DNA of 36,800 bases, from the IMG/VR virus record IMGVR_UViG_2721755498_000005; one strand, 5' to 3'. Each line of letters starts with the position of its first letter. Within the stretch, counting starts at the first letter, position 1. The translations under genes and the position numbers were made by a program. This document shows, one piece after another, positions 3,165-36,800 of the stretch. The stretch is from a virus (taxonomy: Duplodnaviria > Heunggongvirae > Uroviricota > Caudoviricetes). The notes beneath the pieces are model-generated. The model worked only from the letters and a program-made list of their open reading frames with translations. It searched no databases and was not told where the DNA came from.

Positions 3165-4265
3165 TCATTCCATTTCGAAATCATCAATCCTCACTTCAAG
3201 CTCCAGACTGGTCGTAAAACCGTTATCCGGGCTGACGGTATGCGTCAGAGTCGTAATGGTCCATTCCGCATCATCTATCGGCTGTTTAAAGCCACTGACC
3301 TTCACAGGCATTTCTGTGTAGAGATCTGCCCGCCCTTCCGCCAGTTGTAGCGAGAATGACGCAACGCCGCGTTGCAGGCGTTCCCACTGCATTTTCGCTG
3401 CCCGTTCAGCGTTGCTCCGGTTGGCATAAGTGCGATTAAGTACCAGCACGTTTTCATCCGTACCCACCAGGTAATCGCCCTGCTTCGCTTCTGGCTCTTT
3501 CTTCTGCTTCTTAGTTCTGCGCTTACGCTTCACCGTGGTGCTTTCTTTCTTCGCAGGTTCGCGGGTATGCAACCAGCTGGCAATTACGCCCGTGTAGGCT
3601 CCGCGATCTGCCAGGGTAAATCGGTGACTGTCGCCGTCCTTGCGTGTGAGAGTGATCACTGGCAGAGGTTTACCAGTGGCGCTTTTGCCCTGCCCCTGCC
3701 GGATGAATAACAGATTGCCATTTTTCACCGACGCGATGGCACCGTACTGTCGCGCCAGCCGCATCAGAAAACTGCCGTCACTCTCATTAGTCTGGTCTAT
3801 ATGCTCCACGGGCTTATCCGACAGGTCTTTACCCAGTGCCATCTTCAGCTTGTGCCGCGCGGCTATTTCCTTCACCACTTCCCCGACGGTGGTCTTATGC
3901 CACGATTTTTCACGGCGGGTATTCAGCGTTTCCCGAAAATCAGCACTTCGCGCCCGGATAGTCAGGCGGTCCGGTGCGCCAGTGTGTTCAATCTCGTCCA
4001 CTGTGAATGCCCCTTTCGGGAAAAGCGGCTGCCCCTTCCAGCCCAGCGCCAGCGTAATAACCGCACCACGGCGCGGCAGCACGATTTTTCCGTCAGCGTC
4101 ATCCAGCTCCAGATCAAGCTGGTCCGCTTCAAAGCCCCGGTTATCCGTCAGCGTCAAACTCATCAGGCGGTTATCCAGCACAGTGGTGATATCCCTGCCC
4201 TCAATACTGATGCTGAATGCGGGAGTTTTGTTGCCTTTGTTAAGCAGTTCAGAGCTGAAATTCAC
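3165..4265 (-). CDS. D: Tail protein gpD
   Basis: 366 aa; position after U and before ogr as in P2; GTG start overlapping the U stop. Confidence 0.75.
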   Translation of the reverse strand: MNFSSELLNKGNKTPAFSISIEGRDITTVLDNRLMSLTLTDNRGFEADQLDLELDDADGKIVLPRRGAVITLALGWKGQPLFPKGAFTVDEIEHTGAPDRLTIRARSADFRETLNTRREKSWHKTTVGEVVKEIAARHKLKMALGKDLSDKPVEHIDQTNESDGSFLMRLARQYGAIASVKNGNLLFIRQGQGKSATGKPLPVITLTRKDGDSHRFTLADRGAYTGVIASWLHTREPAKKESTTVKRKRRTKKQKKEPEAKQGDYLVGTDENVLVLNRTYANRSNAERAAKMQWERLQRGVASFSLQLAEGRADLYTEMPVKVSGFKQPIDDAEWTITTLTHTVSPDNGFTTSLELEVRIDDFEME

Positions 4266-15177: not shown

Positions 15178-15523
15178 TCTCGGCTCCTGTTGATACGGAA
15201 AGGGAAACAGGCACACCGTTATTACGCTGTCCGGTCAGTTCCACCACCATAGAACCGTCAAAATTGCTGTTGATGGTGATGGATTCCAGCGTCAGCCGAG
15301 GCTCCCAGCGACTCAGCGCCACATACACCGCCGACATAATCTGCAGGCGTAACGCCGGATTTTGTGGCTGGTCTATCAGCGCCGACAGCAGGGAACCATA
15401 TTCACGACGGGCAATGCGGCTACCCTGCGGCGTCAGCAGAATATCCCGCACCGACTGGCGCAGATGGTCAATATCAGTAATGGCTTTACCGCTGGTATTG
15501 TTCATCCCGATATAAAGCGTCAT
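15164..15523 (-). CDS. W: Baseplate protein gpW (gp25-like)
   Basis: 119 aa, position and size as P2 W; ATGA overlap with V. Confidence 0.75.
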   Translation of the reverse strand: MTLYIGMNNTSGKAITDIDHLRQSVRDILLTPQGSRIARREYGSLLSALIDQPQNPALRLQIMSAVYVALSRWEPRLTLESITINSNFDGSMVVELTGQRNNGVPVSLSVSTGAENGSD

Positions 15524-16098
15524 ACCGGGCCTCCGGTGGTGTCGCCACCTTTCTGGACGCCAGTATGCTGATGCGCATCAACCACGATCCCGTTAGAACT
15601 CATCGCACCGCCGCCCTGGGTAACGCCACCATTGATCACCACTTCGCTGTTAATACGTGCGCGGTCAGCCTCCAGTACAAACTCACTGGTTTTCAGGGTG
15701 ATGTTGTCGACAGCCTCAATGACCATTGATTTGATGCCCCTGACATACCAGCGCCCGGTGGCGGGTTCGTATTCAAACCAGCCACCGTCAGGATATTCTG
15801 TCACGCAGGCGTCCGCCGACGTCGACGGCGGCGCGAACTGATTCGAATAGACAGCGGGCAACGCAAAGGCGGTTTCCAGATTGCCACCCAGACTCAGCAG
15901 CACCACCTGCTCACCTTCCGATGGTTTCCACCATGTGCGGGCATTACCCGCACGCAGCGTCAGCCAGCTGATCCAGTTGGTTTCAAGGTCGCCTGTTTTC
16001 ACCCGGCAAAGCCAGTTCTCCCGGTCCACTTCGGTGACTACACCAGTGCGAATCAGGTTGGTGATAAGGCGCATGATTTCGGTTAAATGTGCGTTCAT
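15520..16098 (-). CDS. V: Baseplate spike/assembly protein gpV
   Basis: 192 aa; N-terminus resembles P2 gpV. Confidence 0.8.
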   Translation of the reverse strand: MNAHLTEIMRLITNLIRTGVVTEVDRENWLCRVKTGDLETNWISWLTLRAGNARTWWKPSEGEQVVLLSLGGNLETAFALPAVYSNQFAPPSTSADACVTEYPDGGWFEYEPATGRWYVRGIKSMVIEAVDNITLKTSEFVLEADRARINSEVVINGGVTQGGGAMSSNGIVVDAHQHTGVQKGGDTTGGPV

Positions 16099-16143
16099 GA
16101 GAAAAAACTAACCGCCATTGCAAACGCAATCGAGTAGATAGGA

Positions 16144-16161
16144 ATGTTTGATTCATGGCAC
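16144..16161 (-). promoter_or_regulatory. Candidate Ogr-dependent late promoter element (TGT-N12-ACA) upstream of V
   Basis: tgtttgattcatggcaca centred about 54 bp upstream of the V ATG. Confidence 0.3.
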
Positions 16162-16190
16162 AATACGTTGCTTACTTTTAAGGATATAAA

Positions 16191-16952
16191 ATGAAAGACA
16201 ATTTAAATCTTCTTATAAAAAAATTAATAAGAAAGGCATTTCCTGAATTTAGCAATAAGGTAACATGGACTTTACTCACTGCAGGGATCGGTATTCTTGC
16301 ACTACCTGCACCCACATATTTATTATTCGTAAACCTTATAATTGATTTTTACAACAAAACAACTAATTCAGAAATAAGCCTTCTTAAGATTGATAGCATT
16401 ACACCAAGTAGTGGGGTTGCTTTAACTTTAATTCTATCCGGGCTAGTCTTTCACCTATTAATAAAAGTCCCCCATATATACCAAGAAATTCTAAAAGAGA
16501 ATAACCAAAAAGAAATACAGGAAAGAAAAAGAGTAGCAGACGTTAAACTTTATGAGGCATTTATTGATATTCTACCAACAACCTCGTTATCAATTGAATT
16601 CTTAAAAGACCATAATTTTGAAAACTCCTATCATGATAATAATACAAAAGATATTAGTAATCTTGAATACGGGTGGGGTCATGCAGATCAACATTTTCAT
16701 GACAATGAAATTGAAGATAAAGCCACTCATCTTTACAGTGAAATAATAAAGTTTAATTATTTTCTCGCTTATAAATCGCACAATATCAATAACTATATGT
16801 TTAGCATGCTTACTGACAGAGATCGAGCTATGGTGATGGAATTACTACCTCAAACAAAGGAAAATATAAAAATAGCCAATGAGTGGAGTTCTACAATTCA
16901 TCAGCTTTACTGTGACTTTATCTCCACATGTAGGAATAACTTAGCCATATAA
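16191..16952 (+). CDS. Hypothetical membrane protein, AT-rich moron between V and S
   Basis: 253 aa ORF with AAGGA RBS; visibly AT-rich against GC-rich flanking phage genes; two predicted N-terminal TM helices; opposite strand to the surrounding late operons. Confidence 0.5.
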   Translation: MKDNLNLLIKKLIRKAFPEFSNKVTWTLLTAGIGILALPAPTYLLFVNLIIDFYNKTTNSEISLLKIDSITPSSGVALTLILSGLVFHLLIKVPHIYQEILKENNQKEIQERKRVADVKLYEAFIDILPTTSLSIEFLKDHNFENSYHDNNTKDISNLEYGWGHADQHFHDNEIEDKATHLYSEIIKFNYFLAYKSHNINNYMFSMLTDRDRAMVMELLPQTKENIKIANEWSSTIHQLYCDFISTCRNNLAI

Positions 16953-16970
16953 ATTATATGCTGTAGTTAA

Positions 16971-17414
16971 TTAAGACAAGTAGCGAAAAAAAATATCACG
17001 AGTTATCATTTCCGCTTCGTCGTTAACACCCAAAAGGCGACGCTCTGCGTAACGGACCTCCGGCCCTTTGCGACTGACGCGATCGCGCAGGCCGTAATGG
17101 TGAACACGGGCAATGCGCTGCACCTTACCTTCAAACTGCACGCTGGCAGAATCGGCGCTGGCGGCAGTTTTCAGATATTTTGTGGTGCGTAGCTTTGCAA
17201 ACATCTGACGTTTGATACGCCCCTTTTTACTGCGTGCTGTTACCCGTCGCGGTTCATAACTACTGCCATCTGGATTGCGCTGCATCCTGATGTTCTTCTG
17301 TTGTGTCCTGCGCAGTTCCTGCGCCAGCTGACGCATCATGCGGCTTCTTGCGGCTGGTTCCAGATTCGCCAGTAAGGCACTCAGCCAGTCGTCCACCTTC
17401 TGCAGTTCAGCCAC
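16971..17414 (-). CDS. S: Tail completion protein gpS
   Basis: 147 aa; close match to P2 gpS (MAEL.K.DDWL.ALLANLEPA..); GTG start. Confidence 0.75.
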   Translation of the reverse strand: MAELQKVDDWLSALLANLEPAARSRMMRQLAQELRRTQQKNIRMQRNPDGSSYEPRRVTARSKKGRIKRQMFAKLRTTKYLKTAASADSASVQFEGKVQRIARVHHYGLRDRVSRKGPEVRYAERRLLGVNDEAEMITRDIFFRYLS

Positions 17415-25715: not shown

Positions 25716-25746
25716 ACAAAAAGGCCATTAAATGGCCTTTTTGTTT
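25716..25746. terminator. Bidirectional rho-independent terminator between Q and the retron RT
   Basis: aaaaaggccatt aa atggccttttt hairpin with an A-run on one side and a T-run on the other; overlaps the RT stop codon. Confidence 0.5.
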
Positions 25747-26702
25747 TTAGGAAAAAGAACACTTAGATCAACCCCATATGCTTCAGACATTTTATTTGAG
25801 AAAGTCATCAATTTTCTATAGTTTTTCTTGTCTACACTTTTAACAAACGCAATAAGTCCTTTAACATGTTCGAAATCAGAATTTCTTTTTACCGCCAGAT
25901 AATGGATCTTACTTCTAATTTCGCGATAACGTATTCTGCCAACTCCAACATTATCAATAGATAAAACGAGCCCAGTAACCTCCTTCCTTGCTTTGGGGCC
26001 ATGAATCGCAACTTTATTATAATTAACCTTCAAAGATTCACTTGGTATTATAGAGCATACAAATGACTTAGCTTTAAGTATTTTTTTTAAAGATTGAGCA
26101 GATAAAGTCAAATCATCGGCATATCGAGTAAATACGATCCCCTTACTACCTGCATATCCATGTATTCTATAATCTAATTTAGTTAAAACAAGATTCGCAA
26201 TCTTTGGAGAAGATGGTGCACCTTGAGGTAGCGAACCATTAAATGAACACAATCTTGCTAAAGCATTAGAAATAGTAGAGTTATACCCCAGAGAATGAAA
26301 AACAGTATAGATTTTCTCTATCAGAATAGTATTAAAACAATCTTCTAAATCAATATTTAATACATAGTTAGCTCCTACATGTGGGCTGGCATTATTTAAT
26401 ATTGATTGCCCTTTTTCAAAGCCTTTGGAAAATGGGGATGAATGTAACTTATCAAGGATGTTTCTTAACACCCAAGCTTGCAATGCCTTCAGCTCACGTG
26501 ATGGCTGTGAAATGATGCGGGATCTCTTGCCATCTCTTTTTGGCAACGAATAAACCTTATAGTATTTGTCAGCACGATAAATGTACAACCGGAGTATGTC
26601 TACTGATAAACGCATTTCTCTAGACATATCCTCTAAAGAGGACATAACAGGCAATCCAAGATTGCGTAAGCGAAAAACCTGAGATGGTGTTGCGGAAGTC
26701 AT
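25728..26702 (-). CDS. Retron-type reverse transcriptase
   Basis: 324 aa; RT motifs NIDLEDCF and FTRYADDLTLS (YxDD); size like retron RTs; ATG directly after the a2 repeat of the msr-msd. Confidence 0.85.
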   Translation of the reverse strand: MTSATPSQVFRLRNLGLPVMSSLEDMSREMRLSVDILRLYIYRADKYYKVYSLPKRDGKRSRIISQPSRELKALQAWVLRNILDKLHSSPFSKGFEKGQSILNNASPHVGANYVLNIDLEDCFNTILIEKIYTVFHSLGYNSTISNALARLCSFNGSLPQGAPSSPKIANLVLTKLDYRIHGYAGSKGIVFTRYADDLTLSAQSLKKILKAKSFVCSIIPSESLKVNYNKVAIHGPKARKEVTGLVLSIDNVGVGRIRYREIRSKIHYLAVKRNSDFEHVKGLIAFVKSVDKKNYRKLMTFSNKMSEAYGVDLSVLFPKNKKAI

Positions 26703-26866
26703 GAGCGCACCCTTACGTCATAAAAATCAGATTCCGAAGTGAAAGGAGAACATCGGGAGATGTTCTCCTTTCAATGAGGGAACTGGTAAAACTTCAGATT
26801 GTATGTAGGACAGCGAAACACTGTCCAGTGAACTTCCGGAGAAGCCACTCGCTAAGGGTGCGCAAA
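26703..26866 (-). ncRNA. Retron msr-msd non-coding RNA (template for multicopy single-stranded DNA)
   Basis: Flanking 11-13 bp inverted repeats (26705..26717 gcgcacccttacg and 26851..26863 cgtaagggtgcgc) in a1/a2 arrangement; perfect 14 bp stem with 4 nt loop at 26741..26772; minus-strand 5' end TGCGCACCCTTAGCGAG and 3' end GACGTAAGGGTGCGC match my recollection of Ec86. Confidence 0.65.
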
Positions 26867-27763
26867 ACGCATCCTATCATAGTGGAGTATTGTTTTACCA
26901 CGATTTTCGAAGTTCATCATATCCAGTCGTAGATTGTCCAAAGCCTTTCGATCAAAATGCTCAAGAACGTATTGCATACCAATTTCTGTAATATGGTATC
27001 CTTGAACTGAACGCCTAATTATTGACTCTTTAATCAAGCTTGAAATAACAGACTTAACGATAATTTCACAAAGAATAGCATCTTTCTTAGTCACCAAATG
27101 TAATAGCTCATATAGAAGTATATTATCTATACCATCCATCAAATATATACATGGCAGTATAAAACGCCGAGCGTGAAGAATATTATCTATTGAGTGATTA
27201 ACTGGGTTATTTTTTTTGATGTCATTAATACTTTTTATAATTCTATTATAAAAAGCTTTACCTGTACTCAAGCTTTCAAGAGTCGACAAATCTCCTCGCA
27301 ATACTGCACCGCTATTAGCACGCCGAAGCAGTTTTATAGGCCCATAATTAAGAAAGCTTTTTTTAAGTTTGAATTTGTCATCCTGAAGACATATCATTTT
27401 TTTGCACAGTTTTTCATTATTTGAAAATGCGCCCAATTCAGCGAAAGACCCTGGGCTTTCAGGAATAATAATAATAACATCGACTGAATCAGCTAAAATA
27501 TTCTCCAAACTTAAAAGACTATGCTGACCTTGTCCATACAAAAGCTCATCAAACAACTCCTCAGGATAGAATATTTCTATTTTGGGATGTGTTTCCAACA
27601 CTCTTTTAACTTTATTTCTACAAAAAAACGGATCATTCAAATCGCCCCCGCAAAGGAAAACAGTAACTTTATTTTTATTTTTCTGTTGAAAAAGCCGACT
27701 TTTAATTAAATTTGCCAGATTTTGCTTCTGCAACTCCGGAATAGTTTTCTTTTTCATATCCAC
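26852..27763 (-). CDS. Retron effector, nucleoside 2-deoxyribosyltransferase-like (NDT-like) protein
   Basis: 303 aa AT-rich ORF immediately upstream of the msr-msd; motif IIIIPESPGSFAELGAF resembles the NDT catalytic-glutamate motif; stop codon lies inside the a1 repeat. Confidence 0.7.
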   Translation of the reverse strand: MDMKKKTIPELQKQNLANLIKSRLFQQKNKNKVTVFLCGGDLNDPFFCRNKVKRVLETHPKIEIFYPEELFDELLYGQGQHSLLSLENILADSVDVIIIIPESPGSFAELGAFSNNEKLCKKMICLQDDKFKLKKSFLNYGPIKLLRRANSGAVLRGDLSTLESLSTGKAFYNRIIKSINDIKKNNPVNHSIDNILHARRFILPCIYLMDGIDNILLYELLHLVTKKDAILCEIIVKSVISSLIKESIIRRSVQGYHITEIGMQYVLEHFDRKALDNLRLDMMNFENRGKTILHYDRMRFAHP

Positions 27764-27823
27764 TTTTCCTCAGAATGATCCCATCTTTTATACAACATTC
27801 AAATCTGAGTTTCCACCCGCTGC

Positions 27824-27847
27824 GCGCGCTCGTATCCCCGCCACGCC
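27824..27847. other. Putative cos site (cohesive-end region)
   Basis: Minus-strand reading GGCGTGGCGGGGATACGAG matches the first 13 nt of the 186/P2 19-nt cohesive end as I recall it; lies in a GC-rich 244 bp intergenic region. Confidence 0.35.
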
Positions 27848-28007
27848 TGCCCGCTTTATGTAGCGGTTTTCATGCGCCTGCATGACATAAGCAAAATCCC
27901 GCCACTCCTGGCGGGCCTCAGCTAAAACGATCCTCAAACGATCATGCGGATTCATGCGGCATAGACATGCACAATCTCCAAAGCGGGCATCGAGACTTTT
28001 TGGAAAC

Positions 28008-28619
28008 CTACGTAACCACAGTTAATGTGTGCATCCTGTCTCGAATTGCATCACACGTCTCATCAAAAAGCTTGGTGATGGTTGTATGGTTCAACTCCGC
28101 CTCTTTCCAATAATTTTGCCCGTCAAATTCTGGATCGCTATGCTTAAACGATATTGACTCTGAAAGGCATTCCTTCCGGAAACGGTCCAAGATTATATAA
28201 ACCTCTGGTGAGATGAACGGTTTGTTAGATTCAACACTTGTAACAAAAGTGTTAAATGCATCAGAAAAAACTTTCAACCTTCTAAATTTTCTCTCTTCAA
28301 ATGGTTCGTTGGGGTCAACATGATCCAGCGCAGGCCTCAGCTTAAGCACGCTTTCTCTGGTTTCAAACATCGAATTCCAAATGAGACTATATGCTGATAA
28401 CTCCTTATCAAAATACGCTTTCGTTACATAAACAGAATTGTCTAACTTAGCCTTTATTCTTTCATTAGTTGCACTCAGTTGTGATTGAAATTCAGCAATA
28501 TCTTTGTTTAGCCGCGACTTATATCTTTCTAAATAAACTTTCCCGATCCAAACAAATATGCCAGATGCAACAAAAGACACCCCACCCAACGAAGCCAGAA
28601 CTTTAAAGACTAAATCCAT
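28008..28619 (-). CDS. Hypothetical membrane-anchored protein (accessory region next to cos)
   Basis: 203 aa ORF; ATG with GGTGGGGG RBS; N-terminal TM helix then a predicted coiled-coil/soluble domain; no family recognised. Confidence 0.5.
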   Translation of the reverse strand: MDLVFKVLASLGGVSFVASGIFVWIGKVYLERYKSRLNKDIAEFQSQLSATNERIKAKLDNSVYVTKAYFDKELSAYSLIWNSMFETRESVLKLRPALDHVDPNEPFEERKFRRLKVFSDAFNTFVTSVESNKPFISPEVYIILDRFRKECLSESISFKHSDPEFDGQNYWKEAELNHTTITKLFDETCDAIRDRMHTLTVVT

Positions 28620-33722: not shown

Positions 33723-33916
33723 TTGTTCCCCCGTTTTTTCGTAGATAGTTCTGCCAGCAATTCATCTTGTGAACGGCACGGATGCCAGCGTTTACCATCC
33801 TCCCCCATGATCCAGCCGTGACCGTAATGCATTGCCGGGCTTTGTTTAACCAGCAGCGATGCAAATGATGGTTCTTTCGTCAGCATAAGCACCTCACAGC
33901 AAACCAAATGAAGCAC
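33686..33916 (-). CDS. Hypothetical early-region protein (Fil-like position)
   Basis: 76 aa ORF overlapping the cII 3' end; start codon uncertain. Confidence 0.3.
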   Translation of the reverse strand: MLHLVCCEVLMLTKEPSFASLLVKQSPAMHYGHGWIMGEDGKRWHPCRSQDELLAELSTKKRGNKWLLKALRRLFH

Positions 33917-34409
33917 CGAGGCCAGTCACGGTATCAACTGCACTCGCCATCGCAGGATTAGCCTGTAAACGGGCCTGCAATGAAACAGCCGCCAGCGCCA
34001 TCAGTCGTGTTACAGAGTTAATGCTGCTGATAGCATCACGACGACCGGCACAGGTTTTTACATCGCCAGACACCGCACCTGCAGCAACACGCCCGATCTC
34101 TGCGGTTGCACTCATGACGTAATGTGGCAGTTTCTCTTTTGCCACCTCATTAATCGGTACACATGGCAGACAATGAATCTGTGCCAGAAAACCATCTACC
34201 AGCGTTGAATCTTCAGTCAGATCGGTAAGCAGCCAGATTTCTGGTGCGGTTAATAAATGAGGCTGAGCTGGGTTCAGCTTGTTCCGCAGAATCTGCACAT
34301 TCATGCCTGCACGTTCTGCCAGTTGCACCAGATTGTGGCGCAGTGCAAATGCACGACAGGCTTCATCAAAATGTGGATGTTTGGAAACTTGGTAATCAAA
34401 CATGGTCAA
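33894..34409 (-). CDS. cII: CII-like transcriptional activator (186 type)
   Basis: [21 protein letters not shown]...[50 protein letters not shown] closely matches 186 CII. Confidence 0.75.
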
Positions 34410-34435
34410 TGCCTCTGATGTATTTCAGAATCGAA

Positions 34436-34657
34436 CTAATTAAGGTTTAGATTGCATTCTGAAAGCGCATCAACGGTCATTGCTGCTATGTTGATCATCA
34501 CTTTTTCGCGTTTTTTATCTTTGCGCAGACGGTGACGGATAAGGCGTCCATCAGCCAACATGTCATTGATGGTATCGATGGATAGCCCTGTCAGCTCGCT
34601 ATAGCGTTCAATAGTCACATGAGGCGTGGTAAGAGTGATTGAAATGTTAGGTCTCAT
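34436..34657 (-). CDS. apl: Apl/Cox-like excisionase and lytic-switch regulator
   Basis: 73 aa HTH protein, first gene of the lytic operon facing cI; GAGGAA RBS. Confidence 0.6.
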
Positions 34658-34782
34658 GATGCAACATTCCTCGTTTAATGATGATTAATCAGGACGAATA
34701 CGGATCGTTTGTATTTTGTGAACACCATAAACATACGATCGCACGGTGAAATCGTCAAGATAAAAGTTCACTTGGAGTGACC
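34658..34782. promoter_or_regulatory. Lysis-lysogeny switch region (pR/pL and operators) between apl and cI
   Basis: 125 bp AT-rich divergent intergenic region with partial dyads containing CGATCG; by analogy with the 186 switch. Confidence 0.4.
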
Positions 34783-35352
34783 ATGAATTTGGAGAAAGGC
34801 GGACGAGGCGCCATAGAGCGCATGGTAGAAGCTTATGGATTCAAGACTCGACAGGCGTTGTGCGATCATTTAGGAATCTCTAAAAGTACACTCGCCACAC
34901 GCTACATGCGTGACTCATTCCCAGCAGAATGGGTAATCCAGTGCGCCCTTGAAACAGGCACCTCGCTTAATTGGCTCACAACCGGGCATGGTTCAAAGCA
35001 AACTTCAGGTAATACAAATACTATGGAAGTTGCTAAATATGTATTATCTGATGGGGCCTTGTGTGAAGACGGTTTTTATATTTTCGATAGAGAATTTCTA
35101 CCGTCGGCATTCAAGAATCTTTTTGTAATCACAGATAATAATTCTGAATTTATTTGTGATAAGGAATTTGATGATATACGTGATGGTAAATGGGTAATAA
35201 GTATTGATGGCGAAATAACGATCCGTGACATTACTCGTTTACCCGGTGGAAGAATCTTCGTCGAGGGTGGAAACAGAGCCTTTGAATGTAAGATAGAAGA
35301 CATTGAAATAATTGGTAAAATTATAAGTTTAACAGTCAAGTATGTTAAATAG
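34783..35352 (+). CDS. cI: CI immunity repressor (186 type)
   Basis: 189 aa from the ATG at 34783 (GGAG RBS); EAYGF...L..H..I..S.LS.RY.R....AE.VI.CALETG..L.WL.TG and C-terminus resemble 186 CI. Confidence 0.8.
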   Translation: MNLEKGGRGAIERMVEAYGFKTRQALCDHLGISKSTLATRYMRDSFPAEWVIQCALETGTSLNWLTTGHGSKQTSGNTNTMEVAKYVLSDGALCEDGFYIFDREFLPSAFKNLFVITDNNSEFICDKEFDDIRDGKWVISIDGEITIRDITRLPGGRIFVEGGNRAFECKIEDIEIIGKIISLTVKYVK

Positions 35353-35367
35353 TACCGGGAGGAAATT

Positions 35368-35559
35368 ATGCTTGGTAAGGTATTTTTTGTGGTTTTGTCA
35401 TGTTCTTTGTTATTAAACCCACTAGCTACCTATGCTAGAAATTATCCCTGCTCAGGGAAAAAGGGAGGTGTTTCTCACTGTACCTCTGATGGCAAATTCG
35501 TTTGCAATGATGGAACTATTAGTAAATCCAAAAAAATCTGTACTAAAAACTCACGATAA
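35368..35559 (+). CDS. Hypothetical small secreted Cys-containing protein (moron between cI and int)
   Basis: 63 aa, strong GGGAGG RBS, predicted signal peptide, five Cys; AT-rich. Confidence 0.4.
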
Positions 35560-35747
35560 CTTTTGCTTTTATATCTGCGCCTAAAATAAAAATGAGCCAC
35601 AGGTTAACCGCAAAAGTTACATGATCACATAGCAAAAAGAATAGCCTACTTCATTATGGCTTCAGTGAGATGTATGGTCGCAGGATTTCATACATTGACA
35701 CTGGTTATACATACAGTAAAAATGCTCTCTATTGGAGGGCATTTTTT

Positions 35748-36800
35748 ATGGCTGTACGAAAACTCACCACAGGAAAATGGCTTTGCGAATGTTACCCCGC
35801 CGGACGTAGTGGGCGTCGTGTGCGTAAACAATTCGCCACCAAAGGCGAAGCACTGGCTTTTGAGCGTCACACGATGGAAGAAACCGAAGCAAAGCCCTGG
35901 CTAGGTGAATCAGTGGATCGTCGAACACTGAAAGACGTGGTTGAGCTATGGTTCAAACTACATGGTAAATCACTGACTGCTGGGCAGCATGTCTATGACA
36001 AATTGCTGCTGATGGTTGACGCTCTGGGCAATCCCCTTGCAACTGATCTAACCTCTAAAATGTTTGCCCACTATCGAGATAAACGCCTGACAGGTGAGAT
36101 CTACTTCAGCGAGAAATGGAAGAAAGGAGCAAGCCCGGTCACCATTAACCTGGAGCAAAGCTATCTAAGTAGTGTTTTTAGCGAACTATCCCGCCTGGGC
36201 GAATGGTCGTATCCGAACCCACTGGAGAACATGCGAAAATTCACCATCGCAGAAAAAGAGATGGCATGGCTTACCCATGAGCAGATTGTTGAATTACTGG
36301 CTGATTGCAAACGTCAGGACCCAATTCTGGCACTGGTAGTTAAGATATGCTTAAGCACAGGCGCACGCTGGCGAGAAGCCGTAAATCTTACTCGTTCACA
36401 GGTGACCAAATACCGAATTACCTTTGTAAGAACGAAGGGGAAGAAAAACAGAAGCATCCCTATCAGTAAAGAGCTTTACGAAGAGATCATGGCGCTTGAT
36501 GGGTTCAATTTCTTCACAGACTGCTATTTTCAATTTTTATCCGTGATGGAAAAAACGTCTATCGTGCTCCCTCGCGGTCAACTCACACACGTTCTGCGCC
36601 ATACGTTTGCGGCGCACTTCATGATGTCGGGTGGAAACATTCTGGCCTTACAAAAAATTCTCGGACACCACGATATAAAAATGACTATGCGTTACGCACA
36701 TCTGGCACCGGATCATCTGGAAACGGCGCTCCGTTTCAATCCTCTGGCAACGCTGCCAAGTGGCGACAAAGTGGCGGCAGCGGTTGGCATTACCCCGTAA
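35748..36800 (+). CDS. int: Tyrosine integrase (P2/186 family)
   Basis: 350 aa from the ATG at 35748 (GGAGGG RBS); conserved C-terminal catalytic region (..LSTGARW.EA, HVLRHTFA..F, MRYAHLAP); stop at 36798..36800. Confidence 0.85.
   Translation: MAVRKLTTGKWLCECYPAGRSGRRVRKQFATKGEALAFERHTMEETEAKPWLGESVDRRTLKDVVELWFKLHGKSLTAGQHVYDKLLLMVDALGNPLATDLTSKMFAHYRDKRLTGEIYFSEKWKKGASPVTINLEQSYLSSVFSELSRLGEWSYPNPLENMRKFTIAEKEMAWLTHEQIVELLADCKRQDPILALVVKICLSTGARWREAVNLTRSQVTKYRITFVRTKGKKNRSIPISKELYEEIMALDGFNFFTDCYFQFLSVMEKTSIVLPRGQLTHVLRHTFAAHFMMSGGNILALQKILGHHDIKMTMRYAHLAPDHLETALRFNPLATLPSGDKVAAAVGITP

Follow-up and report, generated by a model that had tools for sequence, protein, structure and literature searches.

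The orf30 slot of a P2-family prophage, between the tail-completion gene S and the baseplate spike gene V, carries a single exchanged gene that may encode a one-protein antiphage defense, in which a two-transmembrane (2-TM) effector would be joined to a four-helix-bundle sensor or regulator. As a whole, this reading, drawn from sequence comparison and structure prediction, stands in our estimate at about an even chance. The element that hosts the cargo is a 186-type P2-family prophage, and the window referred to below is the whole stretch of DNA that was analyzed, 36,800 nucleotides in length. The locus contains the following features.

15520..16098, minus strand: gpV, baseplate spike gene and first gene of the V late operon, left flank (PF04717 Phage_base_V, 1e-17; PF18946 Apex, 6e-8)
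16145..16162, no strand: TGT-N12-ACA dyad (TGTTTGATTCATGGCACA), activator site of the late promoter P_V, belonging to the phage backbone and not to the cargo
16155..16164, plus strand: candidate extended -10 element for the cargo gene, ATGG[C/T]ACAAT (TGn plus CACAAT)
16163..16970, no strand: foreign AT-rich cargo segment of 808 bp (GC about 0.31 versus about 0.56), missing from empty-site relatives
16180..16184, plus strand: ribosome-binding site (RBS) AAGGA, read from the sequence; a purine-rich AAGG/GGAG element is kept in the family
16191..16952, plus strand: cargo ORF, 253 aa, ATG start, identical (100%) to RefSeq WP_058101143
16218..16224, plus strand: A7 homopolymer tract close to the 5' end of the ORF (A6 in the relative L037, shifting the frame)
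16971..17414, minus strand: gpS, tail-completion gene, right flank (PF05069, 7e-41), with gpR next

The 253-aa ORF was found exactly where the original prediction had placed it, on the strand opposite to its neighbors, and its RefSeq counterpart from E. coli HH194M is annotated as a 'hypothetical protein'. The predicted AT-richness was borne out as well: the GC content of the ORF is 0.31 (GC3, 0.26) against about 0.56 in the flanks (gpV, 0.57; gpS, 0.54; entire window, 0.51), and in a windowed calculation the stretch 16099-16970, with a GC of 0.315, is the minimum of the window among 872-bp values, approximately 3 SD under the mean. The RBS that had been attributed to the gene is present as AAGGA, 6 nt 5' of the ATG. 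The cargo ORF and gpV are divergent in all family loci, and the cargo ORF and gpS converge on an 18-bp spacer.

The insert had been assigned to the whole of 16099-16970; this is correct for the 808 bp of 16163..16970, whereas 16099-16162 is the conserved P_V late-promoter region. The dyad within that region, which on established P2 knowledge we take to be an Ogr/Delta-type site, has an identical offset to the V start in the window, in the empty-site phage KP12 and in Cartapus, and in P2 an activator-binding site is annotated at the corresponding place (NC_001895). In empty-site relatives, the cargo segment is missing and the S stop codon lies no more than 7 nt after the dyad. No direct or inverted repeats were found flanking the 808-bp segment, and a transposon-like insertion was therefore rejected.

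Contrary to the original prediction, in which P2 was held to lack a gene between S and V, the P2 record NC_001895 annotates a nonessential gene of 261 aa there, Orf30, on the opposite strand. P2-like phages have three recognized sites with horizontally acquired genes, namely the orf30 locus, the TO region and the Z/fun region (PMC3091744; PMC6823313). The position of the cargo is therefore expected rather than anomalous. Presence and absence at the junction support its description as horizontally acquired cargo and not a conserved structural gene: in close relatives whose V and S are 90-95% identical, the insert is absent and the two genes lie 68 bp apart, as at the empty junction of Klebsiella phage KP12, and the base composition is foreign. 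In a rank-spread sample of E. coli, the slot was empty in about half, and each occupied slot held a single gene, of many unrelated kinds. As in a moron, the insert separates genes that adjoin in relatives (KP12, many E. coli prophages) and deviates in base composition, but a terminator of its own is lacking, with no intrinsic terminator predicted in 15900-17200, including between the convergent cargo ORF and gpS. By position, lying between gpS and the P_V promoter and varying among relatives, it is a P2 orf30-region cargo.

The resemblance to P2 Orf30 is one of place and kind. Both lie between the P_V activator site and the end of gpS, both run opposite to the late genes, and each is a single gene of about 250-260 aa, either nonessential or accessory, with membrane segments predicted in its product. 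However, the two proteins have no detectable relationship (BLASTP E, 4.5; hhalign probability, 0.1%), and a terminator is predicted after S in P2 but none in the window. Searches with the HMM of the cargo family against Orf30 and against a DUF6216-annotated cargo of the slot gave E values of 0.17 or worse, placing the cargo protein in neither family. The DUF6216-annotated cargo, itself unrelated to the cargo protein, is about the size of Orf30. Homology was likewise rejected for the Cartapus cargo and for the TIR, FRG, DUF2971, DUF6216 and four further hypothetical cargos of the slot.

The window gene belongs to a small family in Enterobacterales, which comprises 31 clusters of 45-99% identity; the cargo DNA itself occurs in only 11 of 5,426 complete E. 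coli genomes. The V-S slot is its location in all 27 of the 27 related loci examined, and is kept even in decayed prophages of Erwinia, Enterobacter and Pseudescherichia in which little other phage is left. Identity of the cargo is uncoupled from that of the backbone; in one example, V is 95% identical and the cargo 47%. The gene is under purifying selection, with a dN/dS of 0.10-0.36 in both halves of the protein at dS values of up to 1.6. Disruptions do occur: IS1 interrupts two of the 11 E. coli copies, in prophage regions that are otherwise intact, and two of 13 viral-contig copies are frameshifted. The A6 tract of L037 could be either a sequencing error or a real inactivation. A tblastn search of the cargo protein against 50,697 phage records returned no match, and therefore no isolated, deposited phage among those records has the gene. 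A scan of species-representative genomes by degenerate patterns returned three loci only, because such patterns are narrow.

Upstream of the ORF, a sigma-70 consensus scan found no site with at least 9 of 12 matches. The ATGG[C/T]ACAAT block lies 26 nt before the cargo ATG, where it overlaps the dyad in its right half. It is kept in 17 loci of the family, at protein identities as low as 45%, and is a promoter-like candidate only for an extended -10 element of the cargo gene. This overlap, the location in the late region and the adjacency of a two-TM protein to the lysis cassette would suit a role in the phage life cycle: the protein might set the timing of lysis or act in the manner of a holin, assist tail assembly, or modulate the late promoter P_V, which the gene's candidate -10 overlaps. 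We regard such a role as very improbable, since the gene is AT-rich and runs opposite to all late genes, about half of the close relatives have no cargo while their dyad is intact and S and V are adjacent, unrelated genes replace it in other relatives, P2 Orf30 in the same place is annotated as nonessential, and the IS1-disrupted copies reside in otherwise intact prophage regions.

The lack of a consensus promoter and terminator and the disruption of some copies could also be read as signs of a decaying or silent hitch-hiker, functionless foreign DNA that persists only through its linkage to the prophage. In E. coli, H-NS often silences foreign genes rich in AT, and the composition of the cargo is typical of such DNA. 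This explanation is hardly credible in view of the dN/dS values at dS up to 1.6, full-length homologs down to 45% identity, invariant protein motifs, and conservation of the -10-like block and RBS; moreover, 253 stop-free codons would arise by chance at the base composition of the ORF with a probability of 1.1e-9.

The encoded protein is divided into an N-terminal membrane module and a C-terminal domain.

16239..16268, plus strand: motif FPEFSNKVTW (residues 17-26), juxtamembrane, preceded by an amphipathic helix at the N-terminus and invariant in 29 sequences of the family
16269..16469, plus strand: two predicted TM helices (approximately residues 27-53 and 73-93) with a short loop between them (Kyte-Doolittle)
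16512..16949, plus strand: C-terminal four-helix-bundle domain of about 145 aa (residues 108-253; AlphaFold and profile search)

The two N-terminal TM helices that had been read from the translation appear as two hydrophobic segments in the Kyte-Doolittle prediction. Remote 2-TM relatives keep a form of the juxtamembrane motif, FPDFSNK[IL]TW, as do proteins in which the N-module is joined to a different C-terminus. The net charge is +4 in the N-terminal 24 residues and -1 in the loop, from which the positive-inside rule predicts an N-in/C-in topology. AlphaFold places helices at residues 23-37, 40-58 and 74-127, with low confidence in the TM part (pLDDT about 50-60). The modeled product is a predicted inner-membrane protein in which a long stalk helix would lead to a cytoplasmic bundle domain.

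The soluble domain, estimated beforehand at roughly 150 aa, comprises about 145 aa (residues ~108-253), and its AlphaFold model built with a deep alignment reached a pLDDT of 97.5 and a pTM of 0.90. The earlier statement that it has no recognizable family is valid for curated libraries, as the domain had no match in Pfam, NCBIfam, PADLOC, PHROGs or PDB sequences. For the full protein, PADLOC v2 protein models gave no match even at E<=10, Pfam gave no family at E<=1, including the SLATT and DUF4231 models, PHROG families gave none at E<0.09, and solved structures searched by sequence (single protein and deep profile) gave nothing below E 0.17. No validated defense family therefore vouches for the cargo protein. 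Beyond curated libraries the statement fails: the protein belongs to a family fixed in the slot, and its soluble domain is a widespread, uncurated module. An exhaustive profile search recovered the C-domain in 931 cluster representatives (E<=1e-3); at 50% identity its clusters number at least 931, and their taxonomic range runs from Gammaproteobacteria to Campylobacterota and Aquificota.

The architecture of these proteins is modular. Among the best 150 of the 931 representatives, the C-domain is joined to the 2-TM module of the family in 44, to other anchors with at least two TM helices in 21, to a single TM helix in 47 and to soluble N-termini in 19, and it stands alone in 16. The soluble N-termini identified are TIR_2, a CAP12/Pycsar-type TIR, Schlafen AlbA_2 and HNH, and the N-module, for its part, is also found joined to other C-termini. 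Defense models of PADLOC and NCBIfam match only the swapped N-termini of the superfamily (ThsB-like, PycTIR, Cap12, retron-TIR) and never the shared domain; for PADLOC, the matches lie in the TIR, Schlafen or HNH portions. Across the superfamily, only D117, W162 and F169 are near-invariant, and no residue pattern pointing to catalysis is conserved; the C-domain thus fits a binding or regulatory role better than that of an enzyme. The QHFHD stretch was rejected as a metal or catalytic site, H168 and H170 being kept in the close family only and not in the superfamily. As for genomic neighborhoods, one remote member adjoins a Gabija-like pair and an integrase, one is integrase-proximal cargo in a satellite-like element, others lie in islands that are rich in toxin-antitoxin (TA) genes or carry a NERD-helicase, and one has a housekeeping context.

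Other bundle proteins were considered as relatives. Homology to Csx28, the membrane-pore accessory of Cas13b (PDB 8gi1), is not supported: the match was no better than those of hundreds of generic bundles, de novo designs scored higher, Csx28 has one TM helix, and no Cas13b lies near the cargo ORF. A 4HB_MCP-type sensor domain was rejected, as there was no Pfam match and the similarity was that of a generic fold. In the cargo protein, the bundle comes after TM2 and has a predicted cytoplasmic location, whereas the bundles of 4HB_MCP, TorS, NarQ and Tar are periplasmic, lie between two TM helices and share 4-9% identity with it. These comparisons also bear on the proposal that the gene serves lysogenic conversion or host fitness as a membrane protein unrelated to defense, for example as an envelope-stress or small-molecule sensor or a colonization factor. 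That proposal appears rather improbable: the matches to sensor folds are generic, with de novo designed bundles scoring equally high, 4HB sensor domains are periplasmic, an output domain is missing from the cargo protein, the modules fused to the bundle elsewhere (TIR, CAP12-TIR, Schlafen and HNH) are typical effectors of immunity, and the cargo is rare and patchy.

Small membrane proteins such as P22 SieA and T4 Imm exclude incoming phage, and the cargo product might likewise act in superinfection exclusion, as an inner-membrane protein of the lysogen that stops DNA entry or an early membrane step without cell death. The predicted inner-membrane location with two TM helices, the prophage slot next to loci where P2 has exclusion genes (fun/Z, tin, old) and the single-gene architecture would all agree with this. 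We nevertheless consider exclusion unlikely, because the C-domain also occurs in soluble TIR, Schlafen and HNH fusions and in standalone forms, which a portable sensor or regulatory module fits better than a role at the site of DNA entry. No similarity to PHROG exclusion families was found; exclusion proteins are diverse and poorly covered by models.

The abortive-infection or exclusion function offered in the original prediction is best described as plausible, and the domain fusions and neighborhoods appear to strengthen it; together with the hotspot position, they make the gene a single-gene defense candidate on circumstantial grounds. In the defense mechanism that we favor, the horizontally exchanged 808-bp single-gene cargo, whose slot separates the P_V activator site from the stop codon of gpS, would have its protein made in the lysogen as a one-protein antiphage defense. 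The bundle domain may sense a cue of infection or be regulated by one, and the 2-TM module would then act as the effector and compromise the membrane; this division into a sensor half and an effector half is an assumption. The end result would be abortive infection or a block to the replication of a competing phage.

The same combinatorial logic, one regulatory domain with alternative TM, TIR or nuclease effectors, is seen in PycTM and PycTIR of Pycsar and in the Cap effectors of CBASS. In contrast to those systems, however, a partner gene that would generate a signal, such as one for a cyclase or CD-NTase, is missing from the cargo slot, the module common to these proteins is a four-helix bundle and not a cNMP-binding or SAVED domain, and no Pfam or PADLOC model of those systems matches the cargo protein. 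With neither a signal-generating partner nor a nucleotide-sensing domain, a second messenger is therefore not indicated.

The slot itself also appears to behave as a defense hotspot, judging from its alternative single-gene cargos, three of which match PADLOC candidate-defense families: TIR (PDC-S66/SpbK-like), FRG (PDC-S15) and DUF2971 (PDC-S31). This link is weak, because PDC families are themselves untested candidates. The TIR cargo of the slot is without the C-domain of the window protein. Like the cargo in the defense hotspots of P4 satellites and P2-like phages (PMC9122126; PMC13586616), that of the S-V slot varies, is swapped rapidly, often consists of a single gene, lies between conserved core genes and has a similarity uncoupled from that of the core. 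In P2-like phages, the hotspot that has been studied is the gpA-gpQ one (Rousset et al. 2022, PMC9122126; PMC13586616), whereas the present cargo lies between S and V. In the literature on P2-like and P4 defense hotspots, we did not find the S-V slot described as one, and nothing specific was found on WP_058101143 or on an S-V hotspot.

A broader proposal, which we advance tentatively and with somewhat less confidence than the defense reading of the cargo itself, is that the bundle defines a large uncurated immunity-type family, in which one sensor or regulatory domain would drive swappable effectors (2-TM or 1-TM, TIR, CAP12-type TIR, Schlafen and HNH). The window protein would then represent, in P2 prophages, a new abortive-infection system made up of one gene, and the S-V (orf30) slot would be a further, as yet untapped defense hotspot of P2-like phages. 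If so, the phage-defense genes would gain a new family from this 808-bp one-gene module, and hundreds of uncharacterized proteins with TIR, Schlafen, HNH or membrane modules would be flagged by the new domain as candidates for a role in immunity. The search for new systems by way of hotspots, which in P2-like prophages has already yielded PARIS and others from the gpA-gpQ site, would extend to the orf30 slot, where most cargos are unannotated. If the gene has no part in defense, it would be an accessory gene of the ordinary kind, at a locus already known to vary. The gpA-gpQ hotspot of the same window is occupied by a separate reverse-transcriptase gene.

The sequence-level observation of an AT-rich ORF in the S-V junction was confirmed, and the junction is organized as follows.

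15520..16098, minus strand: gpV (baseplate), matching PF04717 and the Apex motif
16145-16162: TGT-N12-ACA dyad between the V start codon and the cargo ORF
16155-16164: ATGG[C/T]ACAAT block, 26 nt before the cargo ATG, conserved in an alignment of 17 upstream regions
6 nt 5' of the cargo ATG: ribosome-binding site AAGGA
16191..16952, plus strand: cargo ORF, 253 aa, ATG start
16971..17414, minus strand: gpS (tail completion), matching PF05069, with gpR next

The ORF, its own ribosome-binding site and its two N-terminal transmembrane (TM) helices (hydrophobic segments at residues ~27-53 and ~73-93) were all borne out as sequence features. Windowed GC calculation likewise bore out the AT-richness relative to the flanking late genes: GC falls from ~0.56 to ~0.30 in the region and is 0.31 in the ORF (GC3 0.26), and the 872-bp segment is the lowest-GC stretch of the entire window, ~3 SD under the mean of 0.51.

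The original prediction erred in holding that P2 has no gene between S and V, since the P2 record NC_001895 annotates exactly there, on the opposite strand, a 261-aa 'Orf30; nonessential'. The orf30 position is one of three common sites of horizontally acquired genes in P2-like phages, alongside TO and Z/fun (PMC3091744), and in phage R18C orf30 is replaced by a 741-bp ORF (PMC6823313). A gene at this position is thus expected for the group, and the cargo is of a familiar kind, namely prophage hotspot cargo combining a modular effector with a regulatory domain. The defence-hotspot literature that we found focuses on the gpA-gpQ locus, Z/fun and a tail-CI locus, with no specific treatment of the S-V slot.

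The proposed insert of 16099-16970 proved too long at one end. Relative to the V start codon, the dyad occupies an identical position in the window, in Klebsiella phage KP12 (empty S-V junction) and in Escherichia phage Cartapus (a different gene in the junction); P2 is annotated with an activator-binding site for P_V, a late promoter, at the corresponding place. Accordingly, 16099-16162 belongs to the phage backbone, leaving 16163..16970 (808 bp) as the foreign segment. Neither direct nor inverted repeats were found flanking this segment, which suggests cargo exchange through recombination within conserved flanking DNA, not through transposition.

To characterize the family, we searched 5.8 billion proteins and recovered 31 clusters with 45-99% identity, nearly all of ~250-265 aa, none with a protein name or Pfam domain. 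The named members all belong to Enterobacterales, including Salmonella, Enterobacter, Klebsiella, Raoultella, Lonsdalea and Erwinia. The family keeps to the S-V slot: in 27 of 27 loci examined from genomes, metagenomes and viral contigs, gpV lay upstream in divergent orientation and gpS 17-54 bp downstream in convergent orientation, with an upstream gap of 92-105 bp except in loci with an intervening IS, second gene or frameshift. All 27 were AT-rich (GC 0.31-0.36 versus 0.49-0.61 in the flanks), and the placement holds in decayed prophages of Erwinia, Enterobacter and Pseudescherichia that retain only V or S fragments. Three further BLAST-matching loci (25-32% identity), not among the 27, represent distant relatives in non-P2 settings.

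The ORF is a genuine gene evolving under selection. A stop-free run of 253 codons has p = 1.1e-9 at the ORF's own base composition, and pairwise dN/dS from unsaturated pairs was 0.10-0.36 in both protein halves. Broken copies, in a minority, result from IS1 insertions, found within the ORF in 2 of the 11 E. coli genomes carrying the window cargo, and from frameshifts in two relatives (L037 and L044); that the gene is a functionless hitch-hiker is scarcely credible. In E. coli ETEC4089 (locus L004, 1592-3130) and ETEC1702, both porcine ETEC, IS1B splits the ORF into 75-aa and 192-aa pieces, with the neighbouring prophage genes annotated intact. The ORF carries an A7 tract near its 5' end (16218-16224), and the frameshift in L037, a 92% identical relative, falls at this tract, where A6 (~3590-3600) replaces A7; this could represent sequencing error, decay or slippage-based on/off switching.

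Slot contents were surveyed using V, cargo and S as megablast queries; 1,039 of the 5,426 complete E. coli genomes searched contained the flanks. Among 49 places sampled across the ranking, each with both flanks present, ~25 slots were empty (span 1,094 bp), 8 held a DUF6216 protein, 2 an FRG-domain protein, 1 a TIR protein, 1 a DUF2971 protein and 9 other unrelated hypotheticals (2 of Cartapus type), while 3 held the window family, as the window allele and two divergent 250-aa alleles. The TIR (PDC-S66/SpbK-like), FRG (PDC-S15) and DUF2971 (PDC-S31) cargos match PADLOC candidate-defence families. Window cargo DNA was present in only 11 of the 5,426 genomes, all at ≥99% identity, and cargo identity is uncoupled from the backbone (V 95% with cargo 47%; elsewhere, V 71% with cargo 74%). 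As accessory cargo, the 808-bp segment is exchangeable and occupies a slot already known to vary; a function in the phage life cycle is very improbable. The TIR cargo of E. coli strain 410 (L014, 856-1656) lies on the late-gene strand, the other slot cargos examined being on the opposite strand. One P2-like prophage (L009/L010, 4263-6011) has two plus-strand slot genes. The first encodes a multi-TM protein of 220 aa, for which the sole Pfam match, AI-2E_transport-like, is sub-threshold; the second is a family member whose 72-residue N-terminal extension is probably a mis-called start.

The cargo protein consists of two separable modules. In the family alignment, FPEFSNKVTW is invariant immediately N-terminal to the first TM segment, both TM segments and the C-domain (residues ~108-253) are conserved, and the charged linker varies in length. 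AlphaFold with the family alignment gave a pLDDT of 77.8 for the full protein, low in the membrane part (~50-60) and ~90 over residues 100-253; the C-domain alone, with a 150-sequence deep alignment, was predicted as a four-helix bundle carrying a short inserted hairpin (pLDDT 97.5, pTM 0.90). With net charges of +4 in the N-terminal 24 residues and -1 in the inter-TM loop, both termini would be cytoplasmic by the positive-inside rule. Two proteins, P0158 and P0163, join the 2-TM N-module, with the motif FPDFSNK[LI]TW, to unrelated C-terminal regions, indicating that the membrane module is itself portable.

When 1.84 billion cluster representatives were searched exhaustively with a profile, 931 proteins matched at E≤1e-3 (187 at E≤1e-10), most sharing only the C-terminal ~145 residues. 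Among the best 150 of the 931 matches, the N-terminus was the family-type 2-TM module in 44, another anchor with at least two TM segments in 21, a single TM in 47 and soluble in 19; 16 were standalone C-domains, and 4 had the N-module without the C-domain. The C-module thus also occurs in proteins that carry a classic immunity effector as their other half: the soluble N-termini that could be identified were TIR_2, CAP12/Pycsar-type TIR, Schlafen AlbA_2 and HNH, and PADLOC and NCBIfam matches (ThsB-like, PycTIR, PDC-S35/-S50/-S66, mREase_IV, retron-TIR and Cap12) were confined to the N-terminal parts, with none to the shared C-domain. Neither the family nor the C-domain is represented in Pfam (2025 copy), NCBIfam (2026), PADLOC v2 or PHROGs v4, and nothing on them was found in the searchable literature. 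Only D117, W162 and F169 are near-invariant across the superfamily, and the His-rich QHFHD motif is restricted to the close family, making a conserved catalytic site unlikely.

Named superfamily members (Pseudoalteromonas, Psychrosphaera, Pseudomonas, Sulfurimonas and Persephonella) are all annotated 'hypothetical'. Defence-type genes occur in several remote neighbourhoods, as they do in the S-V slot. One member adjoins the integrase in a satellite-like element that also carries AlpA, Terminase_4 and a GmrSD_C-like gene; in a metagenomic island splitting a thymidylate synthase gene (L046, 3759-9981), the standalone C-domain protein P0080 lies beside an integrase and a Gabija-like pair (AAA/OLD-TOPRIM and UvrD helicase); a Pseudomonas island contains a NERD-helicase and a ParS-type antitoxin; and a Schlafen fusion neighbours HigBA- and MNT-type toxin-antitoxin genes. 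The L046 island also encodes two large unannotated proteins of 701 and 985 aa. One remote member has a housekeeping context.

Collectively, accessory status, selection, slot association, modularity, effector fusions and defence neighbours lead us to infer a single-gene antiphage defence, in which the cytoplasmic bundle would sense or regulate and the 2-TM module would act on the membrane. On this circumstantial evidence, a defence role as such is slightly favoured, the complete reading is evenly balanced, and a membrane abortive-infection mechanism specifically is tentative; a non-lethal superinfection-exclusion protein is rather unlikely, and a non-defence membrane protein serving host fitness is improbable. 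The gene offers a well-defined candidate for inexpensive testing, and leads on to a large domain family that lacks annotation.

A consensus scan found no sigma-70 site with at least 9/12 matches upstream of the ORF and predicted no terminator for it. The ATGG[C/T]ACAAT block reads as a candidate extended -10 (TGn with CACAAT or TACAAT), consistent with a weak, constitutively active promoter standing back to back with P_V. As this element shares positions with the dyad's right half (16145-16164 region), late activator binding might, from geometry, shut off the cargo promoter, or the reverse. In P2, a rho-independent terminator is annotated between S and orf30 (L013, 898-934), whereas in the window (16953-16973) the convergent cargo ORF and gpS are separated by just 18 bp with no predicted terminator, so that transcription from the upstream late operon would cross the cargo antisense.

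Elsewhere in the prophage, the gpQ-gpA ('TO') hotspot (25728-28619) is likewise AT-rich.

25728-26702, minus strand: reverse-transcriptase ORF (PF00078, 1e-24)
26852-27763: unannotated ORF, 303 aa
28008-28619: unannotated ORF, 203 aa

This cargo is probably a retron or RT-type defence, which would give the prophage at least two separate accessory loci. No tRNA gene was found within the 36,800-nt window. The immunity and integration end (33894-36800) is of 186 type, and an AT-rich dip at ~34350-35300 corresponds to the immunity region.

33894-34409, minus strand: CII-like protein (PF06892)
34777-35352, plus strand: CI repressor (PF07022 and PF16452)
35670-end, plus strand: integrase, running off the window
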